A DNA stretch of 34,569 bases from a virus (lineage: Duplodnaviria; Caudoviricetes), in IMG/VR virus record IMGVR_UViG_3300030104_002586, positions 1 to 34,569 of that record, one strand, 5' to 3'. Under the pieces are notes generated by a model that did not search any database, was not told the origin of the DNA, and saw only the letters and a program-made list of their open reading frames with translations. Shown in pieces: positions 5,722 through 34,569 of the stretch. Position 1 is the stretch's first letter, and every line of letters starts with the position of its first letter. The translations under genes were made by a program, and so were the position numbers.

Positions 5722-6234
5722 TCAATCCCCAAATTCATATCCAAAGTTTTTCAAAACTTCAACACAAACATTTTCAATTTCGTCCAACTCAAAACTAACA
5801 ATGCCCTTAGTAGAACCGTCAGGCATAGACACTTGTATAAATGGTTTAGACATATTACCAAAAGCCCTATGAGAAATATCAGATTGCGTTTTACTTTTGT
5901 AAAAGATTTTAGAAAGTGGTTCAACTTGTTTGCCAGCTTTTACTTCAACCCTAAGACCAGTAGCCCAATTTTCTTCGTGAGCGTCTGCACCGTGAAAACG
6001 ATTATCAGGAATACCAAGCTTCTTACGAGCAAGATTCTGCTTACGCCTACCTTTAGCACGATTACGCCTATTGATACAAGTACGGCACTTACATTTCGTT
6101 TTTACTTCATTTGAATTAGGACATTTACCAGCCATACGCGTATTGGAATTAGGTTGCCCTAGACCAGACCAGCCAGCGTACTTCTTAGCTTTATATTCCG
6201 CGTACGTTTCAGTTCCGTCCCACCCTTTACTCAT
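5722..6234 (-). CDS. Putative PD-(D/E)XK nuclease/resolvase-like protein with Cys cluster
   Basis: CPN...CKCRTC, basic helix, RVEVKAG (E-x-K) motif. Confidence 0.45.
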   Translation of the reverse strand: MSKGWDGTETYAEYKAKKYAGWSGLGQPNSNTRMAGKCPNSNEVKTKCKCRTCINRRNRAKGRRKQNLARKKLGIPDNRFHGADAHEENWATGLRVEVKAGKQVEPLSKIFYKSKTQSDISHRAFGNMSKPFIQVSMPDGSTKGIVSFELDEIENVCVEVLKNFGYEFGD

Positions 6235-7090
6235 TAACTAATTTATTTTCTTGGACTTTTAAGCGTTTCAAATATTCGCTTTCCATAGAATCACAGTCTT
6301 CCATACGAGTACGATAATAACAAACAACAGAAATGCGTTCGCCGTCCTCACTATTTTTAATTAGCTCAGTGTTGCCGTGCCATTGATGAGCGTCAAAAAT
6401 TAATAAATCTTTATGCTCCATTTTAAAAGCAATACGATATTCAGGCAGAACCAAATAGCCACCAGCTATATCGCCCTTTTTAATACAAGCAAGAGTAGAG
6501 ATACCCTCGTCTAAATCGCCTTTGTCAGTATGAACACCAGTAGGGTAAGAGTTATTTACAGTTACCGTAGTAAATGGCGTATTAGGAATTACCCAGTCTT
6601 GATGAGTACGATTTATAAATTCCATTTGCGCATTGTATCTAGCTGGCGCTACCTTTTTCATTTCGTCGCCAATAAACACAAAGAGCGGAAAGAGTTTTTT
6701 ATATTTGTCCATTTCACGCCCACTAAAAGCAGTAAGCCTACAATATTGTTTGGGTCCGTAAGCGTCAAAACTTCCAACAATTGCACTTGATATAGCCTTA
6801 GCGGTCGCTGAACGCGTTTTCCCAGCTTTAATTAACCGTGGCGTACCAGACGCCAGACCTCTATTGTTAGTTTGATAGCCTTTAAGCTCGTGCAGAGTAT
6901 CATAAGTTTTATCAACTATATCGTCTGGGATTACACCTTTTTGAAAGACCGCCATTACTTGACCGTCAAGACCACGAACCGTAGTGTCTTTGTGAATTAA
7001 CAAATTGTAATCTTCGTGCGTCAGTATCTTTCCCTTTTTCTGCTCCAGTTCTTCAGCAGAAATTTTACTTCGCAACCTTATGTCAATCAA
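6227..7090 (-). CDS. TET/JBP-family 2-oxoglutarate/Fe(II) dioxygenase
   Basis: FTTVTVN, HxD (VHTDKGD), GGYLVLPEY, DLLIFDAHQWHGNT, ERISVVCYYR. Confidence 0.9.
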   Translation of the reverse strand: MIDIRLRSKISAEELEQKKGKILTHEDYNLLIHKDTTVRGLDGQVMAVFQKGVIPDDIVDKTYDTLHELKGYQTNNRGLASGTPRLIKAGKTRSATAKAISSAIVGSFDAYGPKQYCRLTAFSGREMDKYKKLFPLFVFIGDEMKKVAPARYNAQMEFINRTHQDWVIPNTPFTTVTVNNSYPTGVHTDKGDLDEGISTLACIKKGDIAGGYLVLPEYRIAFKMEHKDLLIFDAHQWHGNTELIKNSEDGERISVVCYYRTRMEDCDSMESEYLKRLKVQENKLVNE

Positions 7091-7248
7091 CCAGAACCCC
7101 CAACGTCTAGCCAGCCAGCTTTATCCAAAGCTTTGTCAAAATTATCCGCTTTCCAATGCAAAACAATTTCGTCAATTATTTCTCTATATTCCTCTTGAGA
7201 ATATTTACTTATATCTATTTGTTTAATTAATTCAATTAGTGCGTTCAT
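7087..7248 (-). CDS. Small hypothetical protein (53 aa), not in ORF track
   Basis: ATGA overlap with kinase stop and TTGA overlap with TET start; MNALIELIKQIDISKYSQEEYREIIDEIVLHWKADNFDKALDKAGWLDVGGSG. Confidence 0.7.
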   Translation of the reverse strand: MNALIELIKQIDISKYSQEEYREIIDEIVLHWKADNFDKALDKAGWLDVGGSG

Positions 7249-7802
7249 AATCCAATTTTACTAAAATTTTCAGCAATTTCCACAAAGATTTTATCTCTTC
7301 CTTTACCAGTACAATCTATCCTGTAAGCTTCATATTGTTTAGCAAGCTTTTGATGTTTAGTTATTCGAGATTTAACCCAGTCATAATTTTGTTTTTCTAA
7401 ATTATTTTCTTTAGCCCTAGCTTCAGAACGTTCATTACGAACAATTTCGTCAAGTTCCAAGCTTAATAAATGCAAGTCGCCATACCTTTTAGCAACATCA
7501 AAGAACTTACCGTTAGCTAGCCTATCGCCCTCAGCAACAACGCAATTAAACTTACCCAAGCTATCCCAAGCAGAATACAAGCCGTTCATAAACTTAAGCG
7601 CAGTAAAAGAAAGAGTATCAGTACCAGAAAAAACATCTCGCTTCCTACCTAAATAAATATTTAAGTTTTTACCAGAACGATAGACAGTATATCTAATTGG
7701 TTTTGTAAATTGCTCAACAACTTCCCAGCCGTGCATTATTTTTTCCATTTGTGTAGTTTTACCACAAGCTGGAGCGCCAATTATATAAAATGTATTTAAC
7801 AC
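7245..7802 (-). CDS. P-loop nucleotide/DNA-base kinase
   Basis: Walker A GAPACGKTT, FSGTDTLS, VVAEGDRL, lid arginines; resembles kinases of base-modification clusters. Confidence 0.8.
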   Translation of the reverse strand: MLNTFYIIGAPACGKTTQMEKIMHGWEVVEQFTKPIRYTVYRSGKNLNIYLGRKRDVFSGTDTLSFTALKFMNGLYSAWDSLGKFNCVVAEGDRLANGKFFDVAKRYGDLHLLSLELDEIVRNERSEARAKENNLEKQNYDWVKSRITKHQKLAKQYEAYRIDCTGKGRDKIFVEIAENFSKIGL

Positions 7803-8581
7803 AAAGAATCAAGCCACCTAGCAATTAAAGACGGAGCTAGACCGTAGCCAACTCTATGTAAGCCACCAATAGAAGTAAAGTTTTCTTTAACATTAGGAAC
7901 GATAATATCTTTACTAATTGTCTGAGTGCGAATACCCATAGACAAAACCCAGTCATCTACTTTTGACACCAAGCCAATATCTTCAGCTAAATTCAACATA
8001 TCAAATATTTGAAACTTACACTTATCTTTATCTTTGCTAATGCTAGAACCAAGACGAACGGCTCCGTCAGTTTTAACAATTTGTATAGAGTGATAAGGAC
8101 GAACGTGATGAACACGATAAGGTGCATTTAACATTTCAGCAGATTTACTTATTAAAGTTGCACCCCAGAATTTGTTTAAATTCCTACTTAGACTTACACC
8201 GCGAGCGTCAAGAACGGCGTCATAGCCAAACCTTTTAATCTGGTCAATGTGTTGAACGTCAGAAAGATAGTCTGGTAATTCCAAAACACTTACTGGATTT
8301 ACAAGCCACCACGAATCTTGCTCAACAACTTTATCCGTACGCCAAGAGCTTACCCAAGCAGAACGAGTTACCGTAGCCCCAAACTCTTCATACCAGCTCC
8401 AACTCTCTTCAATGTTTGCCCTTTGGTCTTTTGAAAACCAAGTAGGACGAATTGTTGCAAGAGCAGAACGAGAAGCAACATCTCTATTAGTAGAGTGTAT
8501 CTTAGCTTCGTACCCATTTTTTAACGCAATTTTTTTAGCCATAGAGCCAGCTATTCCATTTCCAATTATTCCAATTCGCAT
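7796..8581 (-). CDS. FAD-dependent oxidoreductase (glycine/D-amino-acid oxidase-like)
   Basis: Rossmann IGIIGNGIAG, ASRSA, VLDARG, GIR, GGLHRVGYGLAP. Confidence 0.8.
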   Translation of the reverse strand: MRIGIIGNGIAGSMAKKIALKNGYEAKIHSTNRDVASRSALATIRPTWFSKDQRANIEESWSWYEEFGATVTRSAWVSSWRTDKVVEQDSWWLVNPVSVLELPDYLSDVQHIDQIKRFGYDAVLDARGVSLSRNLNKFWGATLISKSAEMLNAPYRVHHVRPYHSIQIVKTDGAVRLGSSISKDKDKCKFQIFDMLNLAEDIGLVSKVDDWVLSMGIRTQTISKDIIVPNVKENFTSIGGLHRVGYGLAPSLIARWLDSLC

Positions 8582-8964
8582 AATATCCTTTCTACTTCTT
8601 TTTTAATTTGAACTACTGCAAGCGCATATTCTTTCGTAAAATGCGGGTCAGCAATATTATAATCAGCTAACCTACGTGCTTTATTTGTTAAGAACTTTTT
8701 GTTGAGCTTACTTACTTGACCACTACCCATACAATAAATAACGTCAGCCCACTCAACTAACAAGAAATCAACTTGCTTACTTTTGTGTTCAAAAAATTTA
8801 CCATACGCATTCATAATCCTTTTGGTAGCGGGAAGACCTTTAAGAGCGCCTTTACCCAGACCAGCAGAATCAACGTTTGTATAACCTTTGTCTTTAAACA
8901 TTTGTTCAGCAACCGCAGAACGATTAATGTTGCCCGAACATATTACCAAGATGTTTGGATTCAA
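8566..8964 (-). CDS. Low-molecular-weight phosphatase (LMW-PTP/ArsC fold)
   Basis: ILVICSGNINRS (Cx5R), VDSAG, WADVIYCM, IADPH. Confidence 0.88.
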   Translation of the reverse strand: MNPNILVICSGNINRSAVAEQMFKDKGYTNVDSAGLGKGALKGLPATKRIMNAYGKFFEHKSKQVDFLLVEWADVIYCMGSGQVSKLNKKFLTNKARRLADYNIADPHFTKEYALAVVQIKKEVERILCELE

Positions 8965-9793
8965 TTTTCCCCCTATCTAAAACAAATTGCAAACGCTTTT
9001 TATATTCATCAACGCCGTGTTTTTCCATTATTTTTTTATTTGTATAATCAAAACCTAATTGTAAAGCTTCGTTCCATTTAGCCATACGTGGTATTTCAAG
9101 CTTCATAGCTTCGTAATTATCAAACGGATTTTTTTTACTTAAGAAAGATTTAACAAAGTTTTCACACCACAACAGAGCAGAAGCATATTCTCTAAGAGAA
9201 TCAGTACCAAAGAAATGTCGAAATTCAATAGTGCCGTTACTATAAATGCTTTTAAGATTTATACCAGCACGCCTACTAATACGACCAACGCCCAGAGCGT
9301 TTCTAATTTGAGAGTGATTACGAGCAGTAGAAATTAACCCTTTAGCATTTTTACTTAATTTAGTTTGATGAGATTTTTTAACGTGCTTTAACCTATCGTA
9401 CATAAGCTGGCTAGTAGGAACGGGCAACGGGTCAATAATACGATAAACCAAATCTTCGTAAGCATTTACATAATATTGAAATTCTTTAATCAATCGCCAG
9501 TCGTGTATCAAACCCTCAACCCCAACGTGTATGTGCAAATTACTTTTATGATTAGTTTTTGTTTTATACAATTTATATATTTGCTCAATTATTTCAATTT
9601 GACCAACAACAGTATCGGTCGGATTAGTATTTATTTCAGAACCAATTAGTACATACTTTTTCAAGTTGTCATTAGCAACACCACAATTATTTACAATAGT
9701 GTAATCTTGTTTGTCATAAACACCCAGCTCTTCAGGAAGTTTAACCGAAGTATCTATATCGGGAAGTTCTAATTCAACCCCGAAGCTTAACAT
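8924..9793 (-). CDS. Putative amidoligase (COOH-NH2 ligase)
   Basis: SFGVELE, GSEINTNP, SNLHIHVG, GINL...GTIEFRHFFGT. Confidence 0.85.
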   Translation of the reverse strand: MLSFGVELELPDIDTSVKLPEELGVYDKQDYTIVNNCGVANDNLKKYVLIGSEINTNPTDTVVGQIEIIEQIYKLYKTKTNHKSNLHIHVGVEGLIHDWRLIKEFQYYVNAYEDLVYRIIDPLPVPTSQLMYDRLKHVKKSHQTKLSKNAKGLISTARNHSQIRNALGVGRISRRAGINLKSIYSNGTIEFRHFFGTDSLREYASALLWCENFVKSFLSKKNPFDNYEAMKLEIPRMAKWNEALQLGFDYTNKKIMEKHGVDEYKKRLQFVLDRGKIESKHLGNMFGQH

Positions 9794-10646
9794 CTTTCCT
9801 TACCCCGTTCCAGCCGTTGAGCTCGCCCAAAAATTCATTAGGCAAAGTTTCCTTACGAGCTTCAAACAACAAGTCAGTATATTTACTTGGTACTTCTTTA
9901 ATTGCAATTTGCATTTTGTCAATATCTATACCAGTGTAATAACGCCCTTTTGTTTTAGAATTAAAATCACATAAGCTAGTTTCCGCAGTTTCAAGCGTAG
10001 CGTGGTAACCACGATTGTTCATAGTTTCAACAAGTTGTTCGCTTAACAAATCAAGAACCCAAATTTCATTTGCAGAATTACCAGCTGGGACATTATCTAA
10101 CAACAACTCAAGACCACGTCGAGAACCAGAAGCACCATTGTGTCCCATATCAGTAGGCTCAACATTAAAGTCCAAAACTTTCATAAATATTTCCGCAGTT
10201 TTATATCCAGCCCAGCGACCATTACCCCAAAGCTTAATTAACCTTTCATTAACAAGAAGCCAATTGCTTTTACTATCATTAGTAAAACCTTTAGTAAAGT
10301 AAGATTCTAAAGAACCGTTCCAGAAAAACACATCAACAATAGATTCAAAATGTTTTTTCAAACGTTCTTGCACACGATGATTGCGCCTTTCAGTTTCACA
10401 CGGCAACTTAAAAGAGGCGAACGGTACTTCAGGCTTAGGACATTGTTCAAGAGTTTTGAAGCCAGAACCAATTTGATAGAAAGCAACATAGGAAAGTATT
10501 GCCCAGATTTTATCGTCAGTAGATAAATTTAATTTATCAAGAGTGTATTTTAAGACTGGATAAATCGGGTCAATGTCTTTTGATAACATTTGTGCGTTAT
10601 GAAACTCTAAATAATTTTGAAAGACGCTTTGGTCTTTAATTTTCAT
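9774..10646 (-). CDS. Amino acid:DNA transferase (aGPT-Pplase2/ADDT-like, HhH glycosylase fold)
   Basis: DIDPIYPVL, ETERRNHR, GNGRWAGYKTAE, GSRRGL, ETAETSLCDF, GRYYTGIDID. Confidence 0.8.
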   Translation of the reverse strand: MKIKDQSVFQNYLEFHNAQMLSKDIDPIYPVLKYTLDKLNLSTDDKIWAILSYVAFYQIGSGFKTLEQCPKPEVPFASFKLPCETERRNHRVQERLKKHFESIVDVFFWNGSLESYFTKGFTNDSKSNWLLVNERLIKLWGNGRWAGYKTAEIFMKVLDFNVEPTDMGHNGASGSRRGLELLLDNVPAGNSANEIWVLDLLSEQLVETMNNRGYHATLETAETSLCDFNSKTKGRYYTGIDIDKMQIAIKEVPSKYTDLLFEARKETLPNEFLGELNGWNGVRKDVKLRG

Positions 10647-11346
10647 TATTAAATATTTTACCTAGCCAGTTAGGGCGTTTAACTGAACCGCTATTTATTT
10701 CTTTTGCAAGATTGACAACAGTAAAGAACAAAGCTTCAGTATGACTAATTGAAAGCCCATTAGCAACAATATCAATATTTGTTTTATAATTTTCATATTC
10801 CTCTTTATGTAAAGCTAAAATTATTTCGTTCAAATGCTCACTAGATTTTTTTTCAGTAGGCTTTTGAATACGATTTTCAATATCAGCAATTTCATCATCA
10901 GTTAAAGCAAAACCACCAGTAAATTCTTCAAAGTCAGTTTCTTCTAATTTTTCAGTATCGTTAAAAATATTATCTACTTCATCAGCAGAAAACCCAGTAC
11001 CAAACAATGCGCCCAGCTCCATTAAGTCCCCAAGCATATTAGAAAGTTTTGTTTTGTCGTAAGTAGCCAATTCATTCAAACGGTTATCAACAAGAACAAT
11101 TTTACGAGCTTTAATATCATCAACATCAACGAACATCACATCACAAGTTTCATAACCTAATTCTTTCATAGCAAGCCAAGTGTGATTACCAGTAAGTATT
11201 TCATTATTGTTTTTATTTACAGTAAGAGGACGATATTGTCCGTGTTTTTCTAAACTTATTTTTATAGATTCTAAATTGCTAGAACGAGGATTATCAGGAA
11301 ATTCTTTTAACGAATTAATCTTTACATTTTTAATTTCATAATTCAT
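10636..11346 (-). CDS. ParB/Srx-like N-terminal domain protein, paralog 2
   Basis: LKEFPDNPR, GQYRPLTVN, ILTGNHT, IVLVDNRL; ATG 11346 chosen by alignment with paralog 1. Confidence 0.88.
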   Translation of the reverse strand: MNYEIKNVKINSLKEFPDNPRSSNLESIKISLEKHGQYRPLTVNKNNNEILTGNHTWLAMKELGYETCDVMFVDVDDIKARKIVLVDNRLNELATYDKTKLSNMLGDLMELGALFGTGFSADEVDNIFNDTEKLEETDFEEFTGGFALTDDEIADIENRIQKPTEKKSSEHLNEIILALHKEEYENYKTNIDIVANGLSISHTEALFFTVVNLAKEINSGSVKRPNWLGKIFNNEN

Positions 11347-11947
11347 TAGCTTCAACCTTTCTAGCGTAAAGCTCAACCGCTTTCAAACCAGCAGTTGTAG
11401 GATTACATTTGTAATAATCAGCAATGACATTAATAGCAGTTTTATATTCATCAAACTTAACATCATTAAGCAAAAGAACAACATCAAATACAGGAGCAAC
11501 CTTTGGCTCAGGCTTGGTAGTAGATTGAGGCGAGCTTACAGGCACACCCGCCTCAACCGTATCCAGCAGTTCAGCAACAGATTCAGCAGTATAACCAGTA
11601 CCAATTAATTCGCCTACATCTTGTAAGTCTTTAATAGCTTTTTCAAGCTTTGCAAAATCATAAGTACCGTCATCATTTAATTTATTATCAACTAAAACAA
11701 TTTGTTTAGCTTGTTGGTCATCAACATCAACATACCAAACCAACGCCGTAGCCCAGCCAAGACGCTTTATAGCTTTGTATGTATGATTACCAGCGAGAAT
11801 AACATTGTCTTTGCGATTTACAACTAAAGGACGGTATTGCCCATTTTCTAAAAGAGATTCATAAATAGAATTTACGTCGCCAACACGAGCATTGTCAGGA
11901 TATTCTTTTAATTCCCTTATATCTATTTCAACAAATTGTTCAGACAT
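11336..11947 (-). CDS. ParB/Srx-like N-terminal domain protein, paralog 1
   Basis: LKEYPDNAR, GQYRPLVVN, ILAGNHT, IVLVDNKL; SD AAGGA. Confidence 0.88.
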   Translation of the reverse strand: MSEQFVEIDIRELKEYPDNARVGDVNSIYESLLENGQYRPLVVNRKDNVILAGNHTYKAIKRLGWATALVWYVDVDDQQAKQIVLVDNKLNDDGTYDFAKLEKAIKDLQDVGELIGTGYTAESVAELLDTVEAGVPVSSPQSTTKPEPKVAPVFDVVLLLNDVKFDEYKTAINVIADYYKCNPTTAGLKAVELYARKVEANEL

Positions 11948-12636: not shown

Positions 12637-13308
12637 TCACGAAAGTCCAGACCAACTTAAAGAGTAATGAGTAATAAAATCAACATCAGAAGTATCGCCT
12701 AAACCAGTAAAATTCCACTCGCCTTTATTCTTAAATTCAAGTTGATTAGTTGTATAAAAGTCATAAGGGTAAGGATAGTTTTTAAGAAAGCGAGTTAATG
12801 CGTAAGGTCCGGTAGTTTGCGTTACAAACCTTTTGCGCCAAGTTTTATACACATCTTTTTTAGATTTGTCTTGAATTTGCAACTCAATAAAATCAATAAA
12901 GTCCAAAGCAAAGTTATGACCTTTAGGCATTTGGATTATTTCGTTAGTAATTATTTTACGATTGTCAGCCCGATTAGTGTAAGTTTTATCTAAAATAAAT
13001 CTTAACTTTTTATCATCAGGAACGTTTTTACAATTAGGAAAGACATCTAAATCAACATAAAGACCACCCATACTATAAAGAATTAACAAGCGAATAATAT
13101 CAACTTGCATAATTTCATAACGCGCAGAATTATACAGTTCTTCATATTCAGGAAAAATTTCAATTAGATTGTCGCAAGACTCTTTGTCCCACAAAATATA
13201 TTCATAACCATTATCAGCAGACCATTTTTCAAAACGCTTATTACTTTTTTTAAACAAATCGTTCATACCTTTACCGTAGAAGTCCCAGAATATTTGATGA
13301 ACTATCAT
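12637..13308 (-). CDS. DXD glycosyltransferase (GT32/OCH1-like)
   Basis: IVHQIFW, YEYILWD, DIIRLLILYSMGGLYVDLDV, TTGPYALT, H..SLSW. Confidence 0.88.
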   Translation of the reverse strand: MIVHQIFWDFYGKGMNDLFKKSNKRFEKWSADNGYEYILWDKESCDNLIEIFPEYEELYNSARYEIMQVDIIRLLILYSMGGLYVDLDVFPNCKNVPDDKKLRFILDKTYTNRADNRKIITNEIIQMPKGHNFALDFIDFIELQIQDKSKKDVYKTWRKRFVTQTTGPYALTRFLKNYPYPYDFYTTNQLEFKNKGEWNFTGLGDTSDVDFITHYSLSWSGLS

Positions 13309-20038: not shown

Positions 20039-22536
20039 TACCCAAGCACCACGCCTCTTATAGTGGCTTTTTCAAAAGCTTTAGCAGTTTGTTCAACAAA
20101 TTCTTCATCAGAGCCAATAATAGTTCCAGCGTTATTGTTAATTACAATCATTGGTTCCCCAAGTCTTGCTAACAAATCAGCCCTTTGACTAGGAGGAACG
20201 TTACCACCAACAGAAGCAACTGGTGTTGGAAACTTAGTTCCACCACCGCCACCGCCACCAGCACCAGCACCAGAACCAGTAGTAGTAGATGAAGTAGAGC
20301 CAGCCCCAGTATCTAAACCAACAGAAGTAGCTTTTGCGAAGAGTTCATCATACATAGACATCATTTTCCCTACTTCAACACCAGTAAGTTCAGCCATCAT
20401 TTTTAATGCGTCTGTATAACCTTTAGTGCCTTTACCAAAACCCTCAAGAGCTTCGTTCAAATCATTTTGTAAGATTGCATATTCTAAAGTGTTTTGCAAA
20501 GAAGCTTCAGTTAATTTATTAAGCTTCTCTTGTTCTTCACGAAGTCTTTCAACGGCTTCTTTACGTTTTTCTTCCGCGCTAATAAGTCTTTCTTCAGCCC
20601 GTTCAACTTCCCTAAGCGAATCAATTTCTTCTGCGCTTAACGCAACAGATTCGTCTTGCAATTTAATTAATTCTTTTTTAGCAAGTTGCAATTCAAGTTC
20701 TTTTTCTCTAGAACCGTCTTGCTGGTCAGCCAACTCTTGTAAAGCTTGCTTTTGTCTAATAATCGCAAGTTCTTCCTCAGCAGTAACTTTCGCACCAAGA
20801 CCAGACACTTCATTAGCACGTTCTTTTGCTTTTTCTAAATCAGCAATTGCCTGAGCTTCTTTTTCCTCAGCTTGAGTTCTTTTTGTAAGAGCTTTATTAC
20901 GACGTTCTTCTTGTTTGTTAATTCTTTCTTGTTTGCTTTCAAGTGCGTCTAGAGCATTGACAACAGATTCAATACCAGAGAGCAAAGTGTCTTCATAAGC
21001 TTCAGCAGTTTTCAAAGCTTCTTTTGCGTTTTCGTCAAGTGCAATTCCATTTTCGTCAAGTAAAGCAGTAAGTTCATCAACAGTAAAATTAGTTCCGTCA
21101 AGAACATCTTCAAGCTTTACCGTTTCATCAACAAAAGAACCAGCCTCTTCAGTTGTTTGATGATATTGATTACGCATTTGTCTATAAATATCAACAGTAC
21201 GATGTTGAATTTCTTGTTGTTTCCTAAATTCTTCATTACCTTTACCAACGATTTTTACGATACCAGCAATAGCAATTCCAACCGCAGTTGCAACTGGAGC
21301 AAGAGGTCCCAGAACTGCAACTACCGCAATCATTGCTAATTTGAATTTCTTTCCTCCGTCTTCCGCCGCCTTTTGACCCTCTTGAAATTTAATTATCCTT
21401 TCAGTAAGAGTTTGAAAGAACGGAATCATCTTTTCAATAACTGGTGCTAAATCTTTACCTATAATTATTGCTAAGTTGCCTACCGTGTTTTGTAAAATTT
21501 CAGTTTGTGCTTTCAAACTTTCTAATTGTTTTTCAGCAACTTCTGCCGTAGTCCCGCCAGCTTCCCTCAACGCTTCATCATATTCTTTAATTTGGTCTTC
21601 AGCACCAGCAAGAATTTTAACTGCGTCAGCAACACCTCTGTTCAAACCAAGTTGGTCTAACAAACCAGCCTTTTGAGTATCGCTTAAACCCTCCATACCA
21701 GCAGTAAGATTCGCAACGACGTCGCCTAAGTGAAGCAAGTTACCGTCAGCGTCAGTTACAACTATTCCATTTTTAACCCACTCAGAATTATTTTTCTTTA
21801 CCGCCCTAGATACATCTCTTAAAATTTGATTAAGTTTTTCGCCAGCTTCAGCACCTTTAACACCTCTATCAGCAAAAGCAGAAAGAACCGCGACACCCTC
21901 TTCAATATCTTTACCAACAACTTTTAGCGCTGCTCCTGCCTTATTTGTAAGAGCTTCAGAGAATTGTTGCACGGTAGCGTTAGCCAGAGTGTTCGCCTTA
22001 ACAAGTACGTCAGTTACCCTAGTTAAATTTTCTAAGTTTTTTTGTGCGTCTTTAACAGTAAGACCAAGTGCGGATTGGGCGTCAGTTGCTAAGTCAGTAG
22101 CAAGAGCCATATCAAACATACCTGCTTGAGCAAACTTTGCAACCTGAGGAAGAGCAGAAATAGATTGTTCAGCGTCAAGACCAGCAGAAGCAAGAAAGAA
22201 ATAAGCTTCAGCAGATTCAGTTGCGCTTATTGTAGTTTGCATAGCAACATCTCTTGCAGTTTGCGCCATAGCTTCTTGTTGGGCGGTAGTTGTTTGCATA
22301 ATAGCAAGAGATTGCGTCATCTTATCTTCAAAGCCCGTAAAAGCCTTTATAGAAGCGCTTGCACCCTTTGCAAGACCAAGCATACCAACGGCAACCGCAC
22401 TAAGACCGACCTTAGCCAGCTTGCCCATTTTCCCACCAAGAGCGCCACCCTCTTTACCCAAATTATTTAATTGAGCTTTTGCTAAGGTTGCACCTTTAGT
22501 AGCTATCCTTATTATTAAATCTGCACCAGCACCCAT
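20038..22536 (-). CDS. Tail tape measure protein (TP901-like core)
   Basis: 832 aa, Ala-rich helical, SATESAEAYFFLASAG, GVKGAEAG; hydrophobic and coiled-coil segments. Confidence 0.93.
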   Translation of the reverse strand: MGAGADLIIRIATKGATLAKAQLNNLGKEGGALGGKMGKLAKVGLSAVAVGMLGLAKGASASIKAFTGFEDKMTQSLAIMQTTTAQQEAMAQTARDVAMQTTISATESAEAYFFLASAGLDAEQSISALPQVAKFAQAGMFDMALATDLATDAQSALGLTVKDAQKNLENLTRVTDVLVKANTLANATVQQFSEALTNKAGAALKVVGKDIEEGVAVLSAFADRGVKGAEAGEKLNQILRDVSRAVKKNNSEWVKNGIVVTDADGNLLHLGDVVANLTAGMEGLSDTQKAGLLDQLGLNRGVADAVKILAGAEDQIKEYDEALREAGGTTAEVAEKQLESLKAQTEILQNTVGNLAIIIGKDLAPVIEKMIPFFQTLTERIIKFQEGQKAAEDGGKKFKLAMIAVVAVLGPLAPVATAVGIAIAGIVKIVGKGNEEFRKQQEIQHRTVDIYRQMRNQYHQTTEEAGSFVDETVKLEDVLDGTNFTVDELTALLDENGIALDENAKEALKTAEAYEDTLLSGIESVVNALDALESKQERINKQEERRNKALTKRTQAEEKEAQAIADLEKAKERANEVSGLGAKVTAEEELAIIRQKQALQELADQQDGSREKELELQLAKKELIKLQDESVALSAEEIDSLREVERAEERLISAEEKRKEAVERLREEQEKLNKLTEASLQNTLEYAILQNDLNEALEGFGKGTKGYTDALKMMAELTGVEVGKMMSMYDELFAKATSVGLDTGAGSTSSTTTGSGAGAGGGGGGGTKFPTPVASVGGNVPPSQRADLLARLGEPMIVINNNAGTIIGSDEEFVEQTAKAFEKATIRGVVLG

Positions 22537-22730
22537 TATCTATTCGACCTCTTTTTCGCCTCAGCTTGAGCCAAAGCCATTTGCTTGTTTTGTTCTTCTT
22601 GTTCCCAGAGGTAGAAAGCTACCCATTGAGAAAACTCGTATGAGGACATTGTAGTAGATAATTCGCCCACCGTCATACAAAGGTCGCGGGCTAATCGAAA
22701 TTTGAAAGCAAGCTCGTGATTATTCTTGAA
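22536..22730 (-). CDS. Tail assembly chaperone gpT-like frame (frameshift extension), not in ORF track
   Basis: FKNNHELAFKFRLARDLCMTVGELSTTMSSYEFSQWVAFYLWE...; open in the +1 frame from TTTC at the end of gpG; TAATG overlap with tape measure. Confidence 0.75.
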   Translation of the reverse strand, partial: FKNNHELAFKFRLARDLCMTVGELSTTMSSYEFSQWVAFYLWEQEEQNKQMALAQAEAKKRSNR

Positions 22731-23061
22731 ACTCGTTCAAGATTTCCTCTTGAGCCTCACCGCCAATACCGTTAAGATTTGCTATTTGGACAAAGAGATT
22801 GTCGAGTACAGAAGCGTCTTTTTCGTAAAGACTTTCAATAGCTTTATCATCTAGCTTAGGTTCAATAACGCTTGCTTGTAATAAAGCTTTTTGATAATCA
22901 AAAGCGTCAGTAGTTTCAGCGCCAGAAATACGAGCAAGTTCAACTTGCATTTTCTTAGACAAACCTTTTATTTTTACCTTAACTTTCCACTCTGGGATTT
23001 CTATTTCCTCAACGGGAACGTCAGGTAGATTATTTATTTTATTTATATCTAAATATTCCAT
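22720..23061 (-). CDS. Tail assembly chaperone gpG-like
   Basis: EIEIPEWKVKVKIKGLS; lies between tail tube and tape measure. Confidence 0.8.
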   Translation of the reverse strand: MEYLDINKINNLPDVPVEEIEIPEWKVKVKIKGLSKKMQVELARISGAETTDAFDYQKALLQASVIEPKLDDKAIESLYEKDASVLDNLFVQIANLNGIGGEAQEEILNEFQE

Positions 23062-23082: not shown

Positions 23083-23493
23083 TTAGTGAGTAGCGCGAGT
23101 AACGTCGCCACTAACTTGTAAATCACAACTATATGCAACAACGTCGCCAACTGGACTAGATACTGCGTAATTGGTCATAACCGCTTCGCCAGTATATTTA
23201 ACTTTTCCAGAGCTTGTACCCTCAGGGCTATATTCAAAACTTAATGTTGCAGATTGACCACGAACCACACCAGCGATTGCGTCAAAAGTAGCGTCCCAAA
23301 GACCAGCAAAGGAAATTGTCGCGTCCTTTAATCCTACAATATAAGTTTTAGAATCAGCACCAAGAGTAGTTGTTTCAGCAATATCACTTGTTGCAGGAAA
23401 ATCTACATTGTTAATGTAAGTAGATATATCTGTTAATGAACCAGACGCGTTGTCCAGCTTAAAAACAGAATCCTTACCGTGTGTAAAAGCCAT
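23083..23493 (-). CDS. Major tail tube protein
   Basis: AETTTLG..SKTYIVGLKDATIS, VKYTGEAVMTNY, VGDVVAYSCDLQVSG. Confidence 0.85.
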   Translation of the reverse strand: MAFTHGKDSVFKLDNASGSLTDISTYINNVDFPATSDIAETTTLGADSKTYIVGLKDATISFAGLWDATFDAIAGVVRGQSATLSFEYSPEGTSSGKVKYTGEAVMTNYAVSSPVGDVVAYSCDLQVSGDVTRATH

Positions 23494-23504
23494 TTATTCT
23501 CCTC

Positions 23505-24218
23505 TTAATTATTTCTTCCGAATCCAATTATAACATTATAATTCGGGCTTGTCCCACCAAGCGTCGCTACAACTTTTAGATAACGATTCACGGTAGTTCC
23601 TTTAGCAACCGACTTAAACTCAGCTCCAGCCGAACTTGTTACTTGTGTGAAAGCAACCAAATCAGCATACGTAGTATTGTCAGCGCTATGTGTTATTTTT
23701 ACGTCTAACGTAGGCGAGCTTCCACTAGCCGAAGTTACAATTATGAAAGCACCACCACCATTACCAGTAGCAGAACCATAATCACGAGCCGTACCAGAAG
23801 CCGTTACGGTATATGTAGCATTTTCAAGTACATTACCAGAGAACAACCCTCCGTCAGCTTGGACATCTATTGAGGAAGCGACAATGTCGCCAACGGGCGA
23901 AGACTTACCATAAGAAGTTATATTTGAATTACCAAACACAACACCGTCAGTAGCGTCTATACCGTCAATCCCCATACAAAAAACAAAGTCAGAACCGCCT
24001 AACAAAGTGTTAGTAGAAGCGTCAGCAGTTGCGTCAAAAAAACCACCAAGTGAAACAGTGCCGTCTAAATTACCAGCTATATAAGTTTTGCTTGCTTTAC
24101 CAAATGTAGTTGATTCAGCAACATCACTAGAAAGAGTTGTATCAACATTATTAAAGTATTGTGAAAAATCATTATTATCAAAAAACACTTTCGTATCTTT
24201 ACCGTGCTTAAAAGCCAT
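23505..24218 (-). CDS. Tail tube-like paralog with extra C-terminal domain
   Basis: MAFKHGKD, AESTTFG..SKTYIAG, SSPVGDIVA align with the downstream gene. Confidence 0.75.
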   Translation of the reverse strand: MAFKHGKDTKVFFDNNDFSQYFNNVDTTLSSDVAESTTFGKASKTYIAGNLDGTVSLGGFFDATADASTNTLLGGSDFVFCMGIDGIDATDGVVFGNSNITSYGKSSPVGDIVASSIDVQADGGLFSGNVLENATYTVTASGTARDYGSATGNGGGAFIIVTSASGSSPTLDVKITHSADNTTYADLVAFTQVTSSAGAEFKSVAKGTTVNRYLKVVATLGGTSPNYNVIIGFGRNN

Positions 24219-34430: not shown

Positions 34431-34473
34431 GCTAGGGCGCTTTTACGAGCGCCTTATGGAACAATCGGTTCCA
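34431..34473 (+). repeat. Twin-hairpin element, right-end copy
   Basis: GC TAGGGCGCTT-TTAC-GAGCGCCTTA TGGAAC-AATCG-GTTCCA. Confidence 0.9.
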
Positions 34474-34569
34474 CACTAAAAAATGAAAGAGAGAACAAAA
34501 TGGAAACATTTGGAAAAACAGTAACACACGAATCAGTCAGCTTCAGAAATACAAAAGACCGTTGGTCTT
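34436..34569. repeat. Terminal direct repeat, right copy, including the start of gene 1 (ATG 34500)
   Basis: Near-identical to 1-136. Confidence 0.95.

Follow-up and report, generated by a model that had tools for sequence, protein, structure and literature searches.

Which base, if any, is made by the nine-gene operon at 6227-11947 of the phage record IMGVR_UViG_3300030104_002586 (IMG/VR; Duplodnaviria, Caudoviricetes), and what do its amidoligase and low-molecular-weight (LMW) phosphatase contribute? The window studied here is the whole 34,569-base record, which is 100% complete (CheckV) and whose ends are linked by a 74-nt repeat (14-87 = 34447-34520). Its nine minus-strand open reading frames (ORFs) overlap their neighbours by 4-41 nt and stand in the order given by an earlier, sequence-only reading of this DNA; the families assigned there were borne out by Pfam, PHROG and, for the FAD (flavin adenine dinucleotide) oxidoreductase, by a structural match to gp47 of phage PaMx11. 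We propose that a fraction of the thymines in host-replicated DNA is converted to 5-aminomethyl-uracil, the amine of which is then acylated, with the amidoligase and phosphatase standing in the place of an acetyltransferase. Taken as a whole, this reading is finely balanced between right and wrong, and its parts differ in strength. From the ParB end to the TET end, the genes are:

11336..11947, minus strand: ParB-like protein 1 (203 aa); phrog_723 ParB-like 2e-42, ParB_N E 2e-4, under the Pfam cut-off
10636..11376, minus strand: ParB-like protein 2; ParB_N 2.6e-7, over the Pfam cut-off
9774..10646, minus strand: amino acid:DNA transferase (AADT; aGPT-Pplase2), likely glycine-specific; ADDT 1.2e-18
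8924..9793, minus strand: carboxylate-amine amidoligase of the glutamine synthetase/gamma-glutamylcysteine synthetase (GS/GCS) fold; Amidoligase_2 4.4e-5, 23.9 bits against a cut-off of 22
8566..8964, minus strand: LMW phosphatase, partner of the amidoligase; LMWPc 2.6e-11, YwlE/Wzb matches
7796..8581, minus strand: putative gp47/NGTO-like FAD-dependent glycinyl-thymine oxidase (lyase); best PDB match PaMx11 gp47
7245..7802, minus strand: P-loop kinase, likely a 5-hydroxymethyl-deoxyuridine (5-hmdU) DNA kinase; Ploopntkinase3 4.1e-16, GAPACGKT and EGDRL motifs
7087..7248, minus strand: orf53, a conserved 53-aa gene, found in 14/16 TET-anchored loci
6227..7090, minus strand: TET/JBP 5-methylpyrimidine dioxygenase, ParB-associated (clade C1-like), likely converting T to 5-hydroxymethyluracil (5hmU); Tet_JBP 7.9e-28

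The principle of a TET-started, ParB-dependent thymine hypermodification is already published, and the new part is the last step. Lee et al. (PMC8989533) described metavirome contigs with TET_JBP in place of a dUMP hydroxymethylase near thymidine-hypermodification genes, from which they proposed that thymine hypermodification can be started by TET/JBP, and they listed flavin oxidoreductases and amidoligase- and amidotransferase-domain genes of unknown function. O'Toole et al. 2026 (PMC13229309) reported that clade C1 phage dioxygenases convert T to 5hmU on DNA, given a ParB-like partner, and linked this ParB-dependent subclass to kinases, AADTs and GATases. In phage Tonitrus, a set of this kind (ParB/TET/AADT/kinase) has been named (PMC11955845). 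The sequence-only reading had called the pathway (TET on finished DNA, kinase, amino-acid transfer, remodelling of the adduct) new; the scheme was compatible with every test that we ran and can be sharpened to glycine and then 5-aminomethyl-deoxyuridine (5-aminomethyl-dU), but in view of these three papers the word 'new' was an overstatement.

A ParB-associated TET, probably acting on finished DNA

Thymidylate synthase/dUMP hydroxymethylase (PF00303; control positive in 10/14) and C5-methyltransferase (PF00145; control positive in 9/14) were found in none of three genomes: the window, its complete and collinear sibling G006, and G007. PolA and PolB were likewise not found in these three genomes, with controls positive in each search. 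Because no gene for the thymidylate synthase family, a polymerase or a C5-methyltransferase was found, any 5hmU must arise on finished DNA.

The TET domain (PF12851) scored 97 bits against a cut-off of 34.9, and both the iron ligands (H187-x-D189, H238) and the 2-oxoglutarate arginine (R252) are present. Its C-terminal tail, 21 residues beyond C266, resembles by eye the clade C1 tails in Dataset S11; the N-terminal motif was not found among the constructs in the accessible part of PMC13229309. ParB-like neighbours together with the lack of a detectable C5-methyltransferase, the combination that marks a ParB-dependent T-dioxygenase, are both seen here. 5-Methylcytosine (5mC) is disfavoured as the substrate, since the genome has no C5-methyltransferase, although a host-methylated C might serve. 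The window is like 5mYOX clade C1 (e.g. 5mYOX176/ParB176; PMC13229309) in its TET/JBP of ~290 aa with a C-terminal tail, its ParB neighbours, the nearby kinase and AADT and the missing C5-methyltransferase, and two-ParB loci (166, 196) have already been noted in that study. In its accessible text, however, that work ends at 5hmU and gives no downstream product, and the words 'amidoligase' and 'LMWPc' are absent from the text of 12 supplements. In Pelagibacter phage HTVC112P (L018, 6375-8597) we saw a ParB-TET-FkbM methyltransferase locus whose TET is annotated as an SNF2/DnaJ protein.

ParB1 is retained in sibling loci regardless of the type of cassette, and by analogy with the systems in PMC13229309 it is likely to be the activator of the T-dioxygenase, a role for the ParB proteins that the sequence-only reading had missed. 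ParB2 is a paralogue of ParB1 (35-40% identity in cross-matches to sibling copies), and its true start probably lies near 11346, where the sibling copies begin. The two TET-anchored loci in which orf53 was not seen are cut short; at 49-96% identity, orf53 is part of the ParB/TET frame rather than of the swapped cassette. A predicted complex of TET and orf53 scored 0.02, which counts neither way on orf53 as a TET subunit. The gene goes with the two-ParB form of the locus and was not seen in the single-ParB GNAT siblings (L166, L167), where TET is 16-18 residues longer.

A likely route to 5-aminomethyl-dU

The PaMx11 pathway to 5-acetylaminomethyl-dU comprises gp49 (kinase), gp46 (glycine:DNA transferase), gp47 (FAD lyase) and gp48 (GNAT) (PMC8989533, PMC11472151), and has been reconstituted: glycine transfer gives a species of 315 u, FAD-dependent cleavage gives 5-aminomethyl-dU at 257 u, and acetylation a product of 299 u (PMC8989533). 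That the 9774-10646 protein has the aGPT-Pplase/ADDT fold, as the sequence-only reading had it, is supported by its ADDT match and by its clade profile, which matched PDB 25QC (9e-16) and gp46 (8Z2M, 1.7e-8); a profile was required, as a PDB search with the single sequence gave no match. At 20% overall identity, D26, W145 and K149 align with the glycine-binding D24, W146 and K150 of gp46, and E222, T223 and C226 with the calcium ligands E243 and T244 and the catalytic C247 (roles from PMC11472151). The equivalents of W146/K150 are Y/K in phiW-14 gp109 (putrescine) and L/N in ViI gp247 (serine); both residues are absent from 51/51 non-FAD transferases and kept in 10/10 FAD-linked ones. The AADT tree was a quick version with long-branch warnings. 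The idea that GATase-linked transferases use ammonia was set aside as unproven, the ViI serine transferase also being without W146 and K150.

The flavoenzyme had no Pfam match itself; many of its 40 homologues carry DAO (PF01266). Its model (predicted local distance difference test, pLDDT, 92.5) had PaMx11 gp47 as the top match among all PDB chains (E 3.6e-13, template-modelling score (TM) 0.68-0.72), and gp47 was also its best PDB match by profile. W48, F49, P162, Y163 and R218 align with W51, F52, P179, Y180 and R242 of gp47, that is, with the W/F stack, the P-Y wedge and the carboxylate-binding arginine of a DAO-family fold with GxGxxG; Q182, Y244 and K268 of gp47 are replaced by S, Q and R. 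Because the transferase keeps the glycine-site residues of gp46 and the flavoenzyme best matches gp47, the intermediate is likely to be 5-aminomethyl-dU, formed by glycine transfer followed by cleavage.

The window is thus like PaMx11 in its kinase, glycine-type transferase, gp47-fold flavoenzyme and predicted intermediate. It differs in that 5hmU would come from TET on finished DNA and not from a dUMP hydroxymethylase, in the low identity of the proteins (16-20%), and in that an amidoligase and an LMW phosphatase replace the GNAT. With neither GNAT nor dUMP hydroxymethylase found, the operon falls outside the PaMx11 pathway proper. The actinophage ParB-TET-AADT-(FAD)-kinase cassettes of Tonitrus (PMC11955845), Phelemich and Kozie share with the window the TET, the kinase and the transferase clade (32-37% identical), as well as the flavoenzyme in Phelemich and Kozie; in contrast to the window, they have at most one ParB and no amidoligase or phosphatase was seen in them.

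Exchange of cassettes between ParB and TET

In the 16 loci found with the window TET (the TET-anchored set), genes of the five-gene block were present in 4, with TETs 91-93% identical, whereas in 9 others (TET 71-86%) a single TET-associated glycosyltransferase (TAGT) replaces the block; the remaining 3 are too short. Two of five tested TAGT proteins were over the Pfam cut-off, and the others carry the label from a local profile built partly from them. The sibling L017 is collinear with the whole of 6227-11947 at ~82% DNA identity. Nine further loci of the same lineage read ParB-AADT-GNAT-FAD, then kinase-TET where the contig extends; their AADTs are 52-54% identical, their phosphoesterase, lysin and downstream flank are those of the window lineage, and 3/3 tested GNATs pass Pfam.

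Within one lineage, the ParB-TET interval is filled by a glycosyltransferase, by transferase-GNAT-FAD-kinase or, in the window, by transferase-amidoligase-phosphatase-FAD-kinase. The amidoligase and phosphatase of the window occupy the GNAT position, and a GNAT profile matched G007 and neither the window nor G006. The same exchange is found in the pre-replicative branch, where PaMx11 has AADT-FAD-GNAT-kinase whereas phage Simon and several thymidylate-synthase-type contigs have AADT-FAD-amidoligase-LMW phosphatase-kinase. The Simon locus (L022, PQ683277.1, 4849-12528) is unannotated; its AADT, FAD, amidoligase, LMW phosphatase, kinase and thymidylate-synthase-like genes are the same tailoring set on a pre-replicative route. 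Two TETs and three ParBs were seen in L216 and L218, and TAGT and AADT-FAD modules together in L212.

The amidoligase and its phosphatase

The amidoligase carries the full ExE...E...HxH...R...E-x-R residue set of GS/GCS-fold ligases, and E7, E9, E53, H87, H89, R175, E190 and R192 are invariant among 20 sequences. Its model (pLDDT 92) matched the GS/GCS fold in Foldseek (E 1.5e-5, TM ~0.4); by VIA, it aligned to 1TT4 over 212 residues (Z 9.8, root-mean-square deviation 4.6), and ranks 1-19 were GS/GCS/PafA-Dop-type chains. The phosphatase has the loop C9-x5-R (CSGNINRS) and the general acid D106-P, and C-x-G-N-[IV]-N-R-S is common to the partner phosphatases. A phage sequence search with the phosphatase gave no match.

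Three sets of loci were surveyed: 79 viral loci anchored on the ligase (the best 80 of 418, with L009 left out), 80 anchored on the transferase (the best 80 of 124), and 79 metagenome ligase loci, which overlap the viral set and from which L224, identical to the window, was left out. Of the ligase-anchored viral loci, 68 have the phosphatase as a gene of its own, adjacent in 67; of those without a separate phosphatase, one has a kinase fusion and 4 of the rest stop at a contig edge. Fusions counted, it is present in 64/79 metagenome loci, and amidoligase and phosphatase are fused in P0022, L251, L261 and L274, and joined with TAGT in a triple fusion in L250. In the transferase-anchored set (TET 74, FAD 66, GNAT 19, ligase and phosphatase 4), the phosphatase occurs in 4/4 amidoligase-bearing loci versus 0/76 amidoligase-free ones. 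Since the phosphatase goes with the ligase rather than with the kinase, we infer that the phosphate it removes arrives with the substrate of the ligase.

It could instead be that the ligase gamma-glutamylates the aminomethyl base, glutamate being the customary donor for this fold, and that the phosphatase merely clears leftover 5-phosphomethyl-U or an abortive acyl-phosphate. The top structural neighbours of the ligase are indeed glutamate ligases and their relatives, and LMW phosphatase-kinase fusions exist in L040 and L270. The 76 loci that lack both ligase and phosphatase are mostly kinase-bearing, however, and to our knowledge the known glutamate ligases require no phosphatase partner, so that we regard glutamylation with a clearing phosphatase as improbable.

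The pair also adjoins QueF in two loci, L300 and L279, the latter belonging to the complete phage G002 and having QueC and FolE as well. Because it sits in the AADT-FAD/GNAT slot and beside QueF, the maker of the aminomethyl base preQ1, an aminomethyl acceptor is suggested. A different possibility is that the pathway stops at 5-aminomethyl-dU and that the pair is a mobile passenger with a small molecule or something else than DNA as its substrate. The commonest form in the transferase-anchored set is ParB-TET-AADT-FAD-kinase with no acylating gene (35/80), no modification cluster is visible around the closest amidoligase homologues, and in L027 and L028 the pair is ~7.5 kb away from the TET cluster. 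A passenger would hardly be expected, however, to take the place of the GNAT between AADT and FAD, as the pair does in the window lineage, L029, L030 and L222, to stand beside FAD in thymidylate-synthase-type loci, or to be fused to TAGT or kinase (L250, L253, L040, L270), and we give a passenger role little credence.

Less credible still is a third alternative, in which DNA supplies the carboxylate (N-glycinyl-T, or 5-carboxyuracil (5caU) through over-oxidation by TET), the ligase adds ammonia or a phosphorylated amine and the flavoenzyme is on a side branch, or in which the ligase is an N-kinase opposed by a YwlE-like N-phosphatase. TET homologues do oxidise up to 5caU (PMC13229309), and GATase is the commonest partner of the ligase family: in the ligase-anchored viral set it is present in 55/79 loci and FAD in 11/79, with both in 0 and GNAT in 0. 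There is no GATase in the window operon, however, and its flavoenzyme retains the DNA wedge and carboxylate-binding residues of gp47 and would remove the carboxylate. As for an N-kinase, YwlE is the best PDB sequence match of the phosphatase and the McsB kinase is among the structural neighbours of the ligase, but at Z 4.4 versus 8-10 for ligases, and the ExE motif is invariant.

Other settings of the ligase were noted. It stands near 7-deazaguanine genes, in the order QueF-ligase-phosphatase, in L279 (G002, 5874-9742) and L300 (219-2089), and in Vibrio phage 2.275.O (L023) it adjoins a QueF/QueC/FolE cluster; acylated preQ1 in the DNA of such phages is possible. L299 (1453-3709) has a DpdA-like gene with ligase and GNAT; we presume the DpdA-like nature of the genes in L299 and L308 from a motif, and NCBIfam did not confirm it. 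In L225-L239, L245, L249, L258 and L289 the pair lies in phage-like contigs that show no thymine-modification gene in its vicinity, and in 15 of these it adjoins an amidohydrolase-like gene of 320-385 aa that falls in no Pfam family. In five amidoligase records with no such link, neither ADDT nor Tet_JBP gave a match, but the control was silent as well. A separate cluster (L050, L051, L059, L066, L091) has two or three amidoligases and no phosphatase; its representatives carry aspartate decarboxylase, UvdE-like and LuxE/LuxC-like genes.

The proposed pathway and its weight

We propose that TET, activated by ParB, would oxidise T to 5hmU, as shown for its homologues; that the kinase would phosphorylate 5hmU, as shown for its family; that the transferase would swap the phosphate for glycine, as does PaMx11 gp46, whose site residues it keeps; and that the flavoenzyme would cleave the glycine to leave 5-aminomethyl-dU, as does gp47, with which it shares fold and site residues. 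Together, these four steps are probable. The GS-fold ligase would then use ATP to couple a carboxylic acid to the amine, as the gene swaps suggest; we lean slightly towards the ligase acylating the 5-aminomethyl amine. Finally, in the weakest step, for which we have inference only, the LMW phosphatase might strip a phosphate brought by the acyl donor, e.g. a phosphorylated hydroxy or amino acid; in this wording the step is doubtful. The purpose of the modification is likely to be protection from host restriction nucleases.

Several observations weigh against this pathway. At its start, the two published two-ParB systems reached 5hmU levels in E. coli of 0.7% and, with only one ParB co-expressed, 0%, and purified TET homologues oxidise 5mC about equally to T (PMC13229309). 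In the transferase, the DNA wedge of gp46 (H95, F173, D175) aligns with N, A and G and FGPW with NGRW; these differences are clade-wide, and the local alignment is uncertain at 20% identity. Most bear on the pair. The 15 closest metagenome amidoligase homologues (40-45% identical) come with the phosphatase but have no thymine-modification gene in the 1.8-14.3 kb examined, and 11 of them adjoin an amidohydrolase-like gene (a likeness by language-model features only); 40/79 metagenome loci show no thymine-modification gene, many of the loci being short. The non-overlap of GNAT and amidoligase in the transferase-anchored set (19 and 4 of 80) is not significant by itself (chance 0.33), and L299 has both. 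The exclusion between FAD and GATase runs along the split between two transferase clades, and with 47/79 loci in a single cluster the loci cannot be counted as independent.

Acylation of an aminomethyl group on a DNA base has a precedent in formyl-preQ1 (fdPreQ1) phage DNA, which differs from the window in its 7-deazaguanine base and in using a predicted PurN-like formyltransferase instead of an ATP-dependent ligase; in other phages, the preQ1 amine is formylated or methylated (bioRxiv 10.1101/2023.04.13.536721). In the literature searched, which left most subscription journals outside its coverage, we found no description of a carboxylate-amine ligase that uses ATP to act on polymeric DNA, no paper that says what the amidoligase or LMW phosphatase of such clusters does, and no product of a pathway with this full enzyme set, the last in line with what the sequence-only reading had said. 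Possibly, though we would sooner doubt it, ligase and phosphatase form a portable two-gene module for the acylation of aminomethyl groups on DNA bases: a phosphorylated acid would be joined to 5-aminomethyl-U (or, in QueF phages, to preQ1), after which the phosphatase would expose a hydroxyl, which other phages can glycosylate.

Flanking genes and other features of the genome

A tenth overlapping gene comes after TET:

5722..6234, minus strand: 170-aa gene overlapping TET; conserved flank in all 16 TET loci

Its protein gave zero Pfam, PHROG and NCBIfam matches and shows a nuclease-like E-x-K motif by eye only; it is probably outside the modification pathway. On the other side, a DXD glycosyltransferase (12637-13308, minus strand; PF04488 2e-11) fills a variable slot between phosphoesterase and lysin. 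It was considered as a pathway member and rejected, since no sibling locus spanning the site has the gene, and it is probably unrelated to DNA modification. Promoter and terminator scans were at chance level (25 vs 30.5 expected; 8 vs 5.5). The best terminase matches of the phage reach 31% identity only. Further along, 22536-23061 and 23083-24218 hold a tail assembly chaperone with a short ORF in a different frame behind it, possibly a programmed frameshift, and two adjacent major-tail-protein paralogues.

Significance

If the ligase acylates DNA, the locus would encode a new DNA base and a new class of DNA-modifying enzyme, and the ligase-phosphatase pairs of T4-like and PaMx11-like phages would likely be explained too. 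The locus makes the amidoligase question testable: homologues of the enzymes for the four upstream steps have been characterised, the gene set is compact and requires no phage replication genes, and siblings that have only the glycosyltransferase, or the GNAT, at this site are natural controls. Should the pair prove to be a portable module, it would define a new and widespread family of amide-linked bases, made here without a phage polymerase or a nucleotide-pool enzyme.

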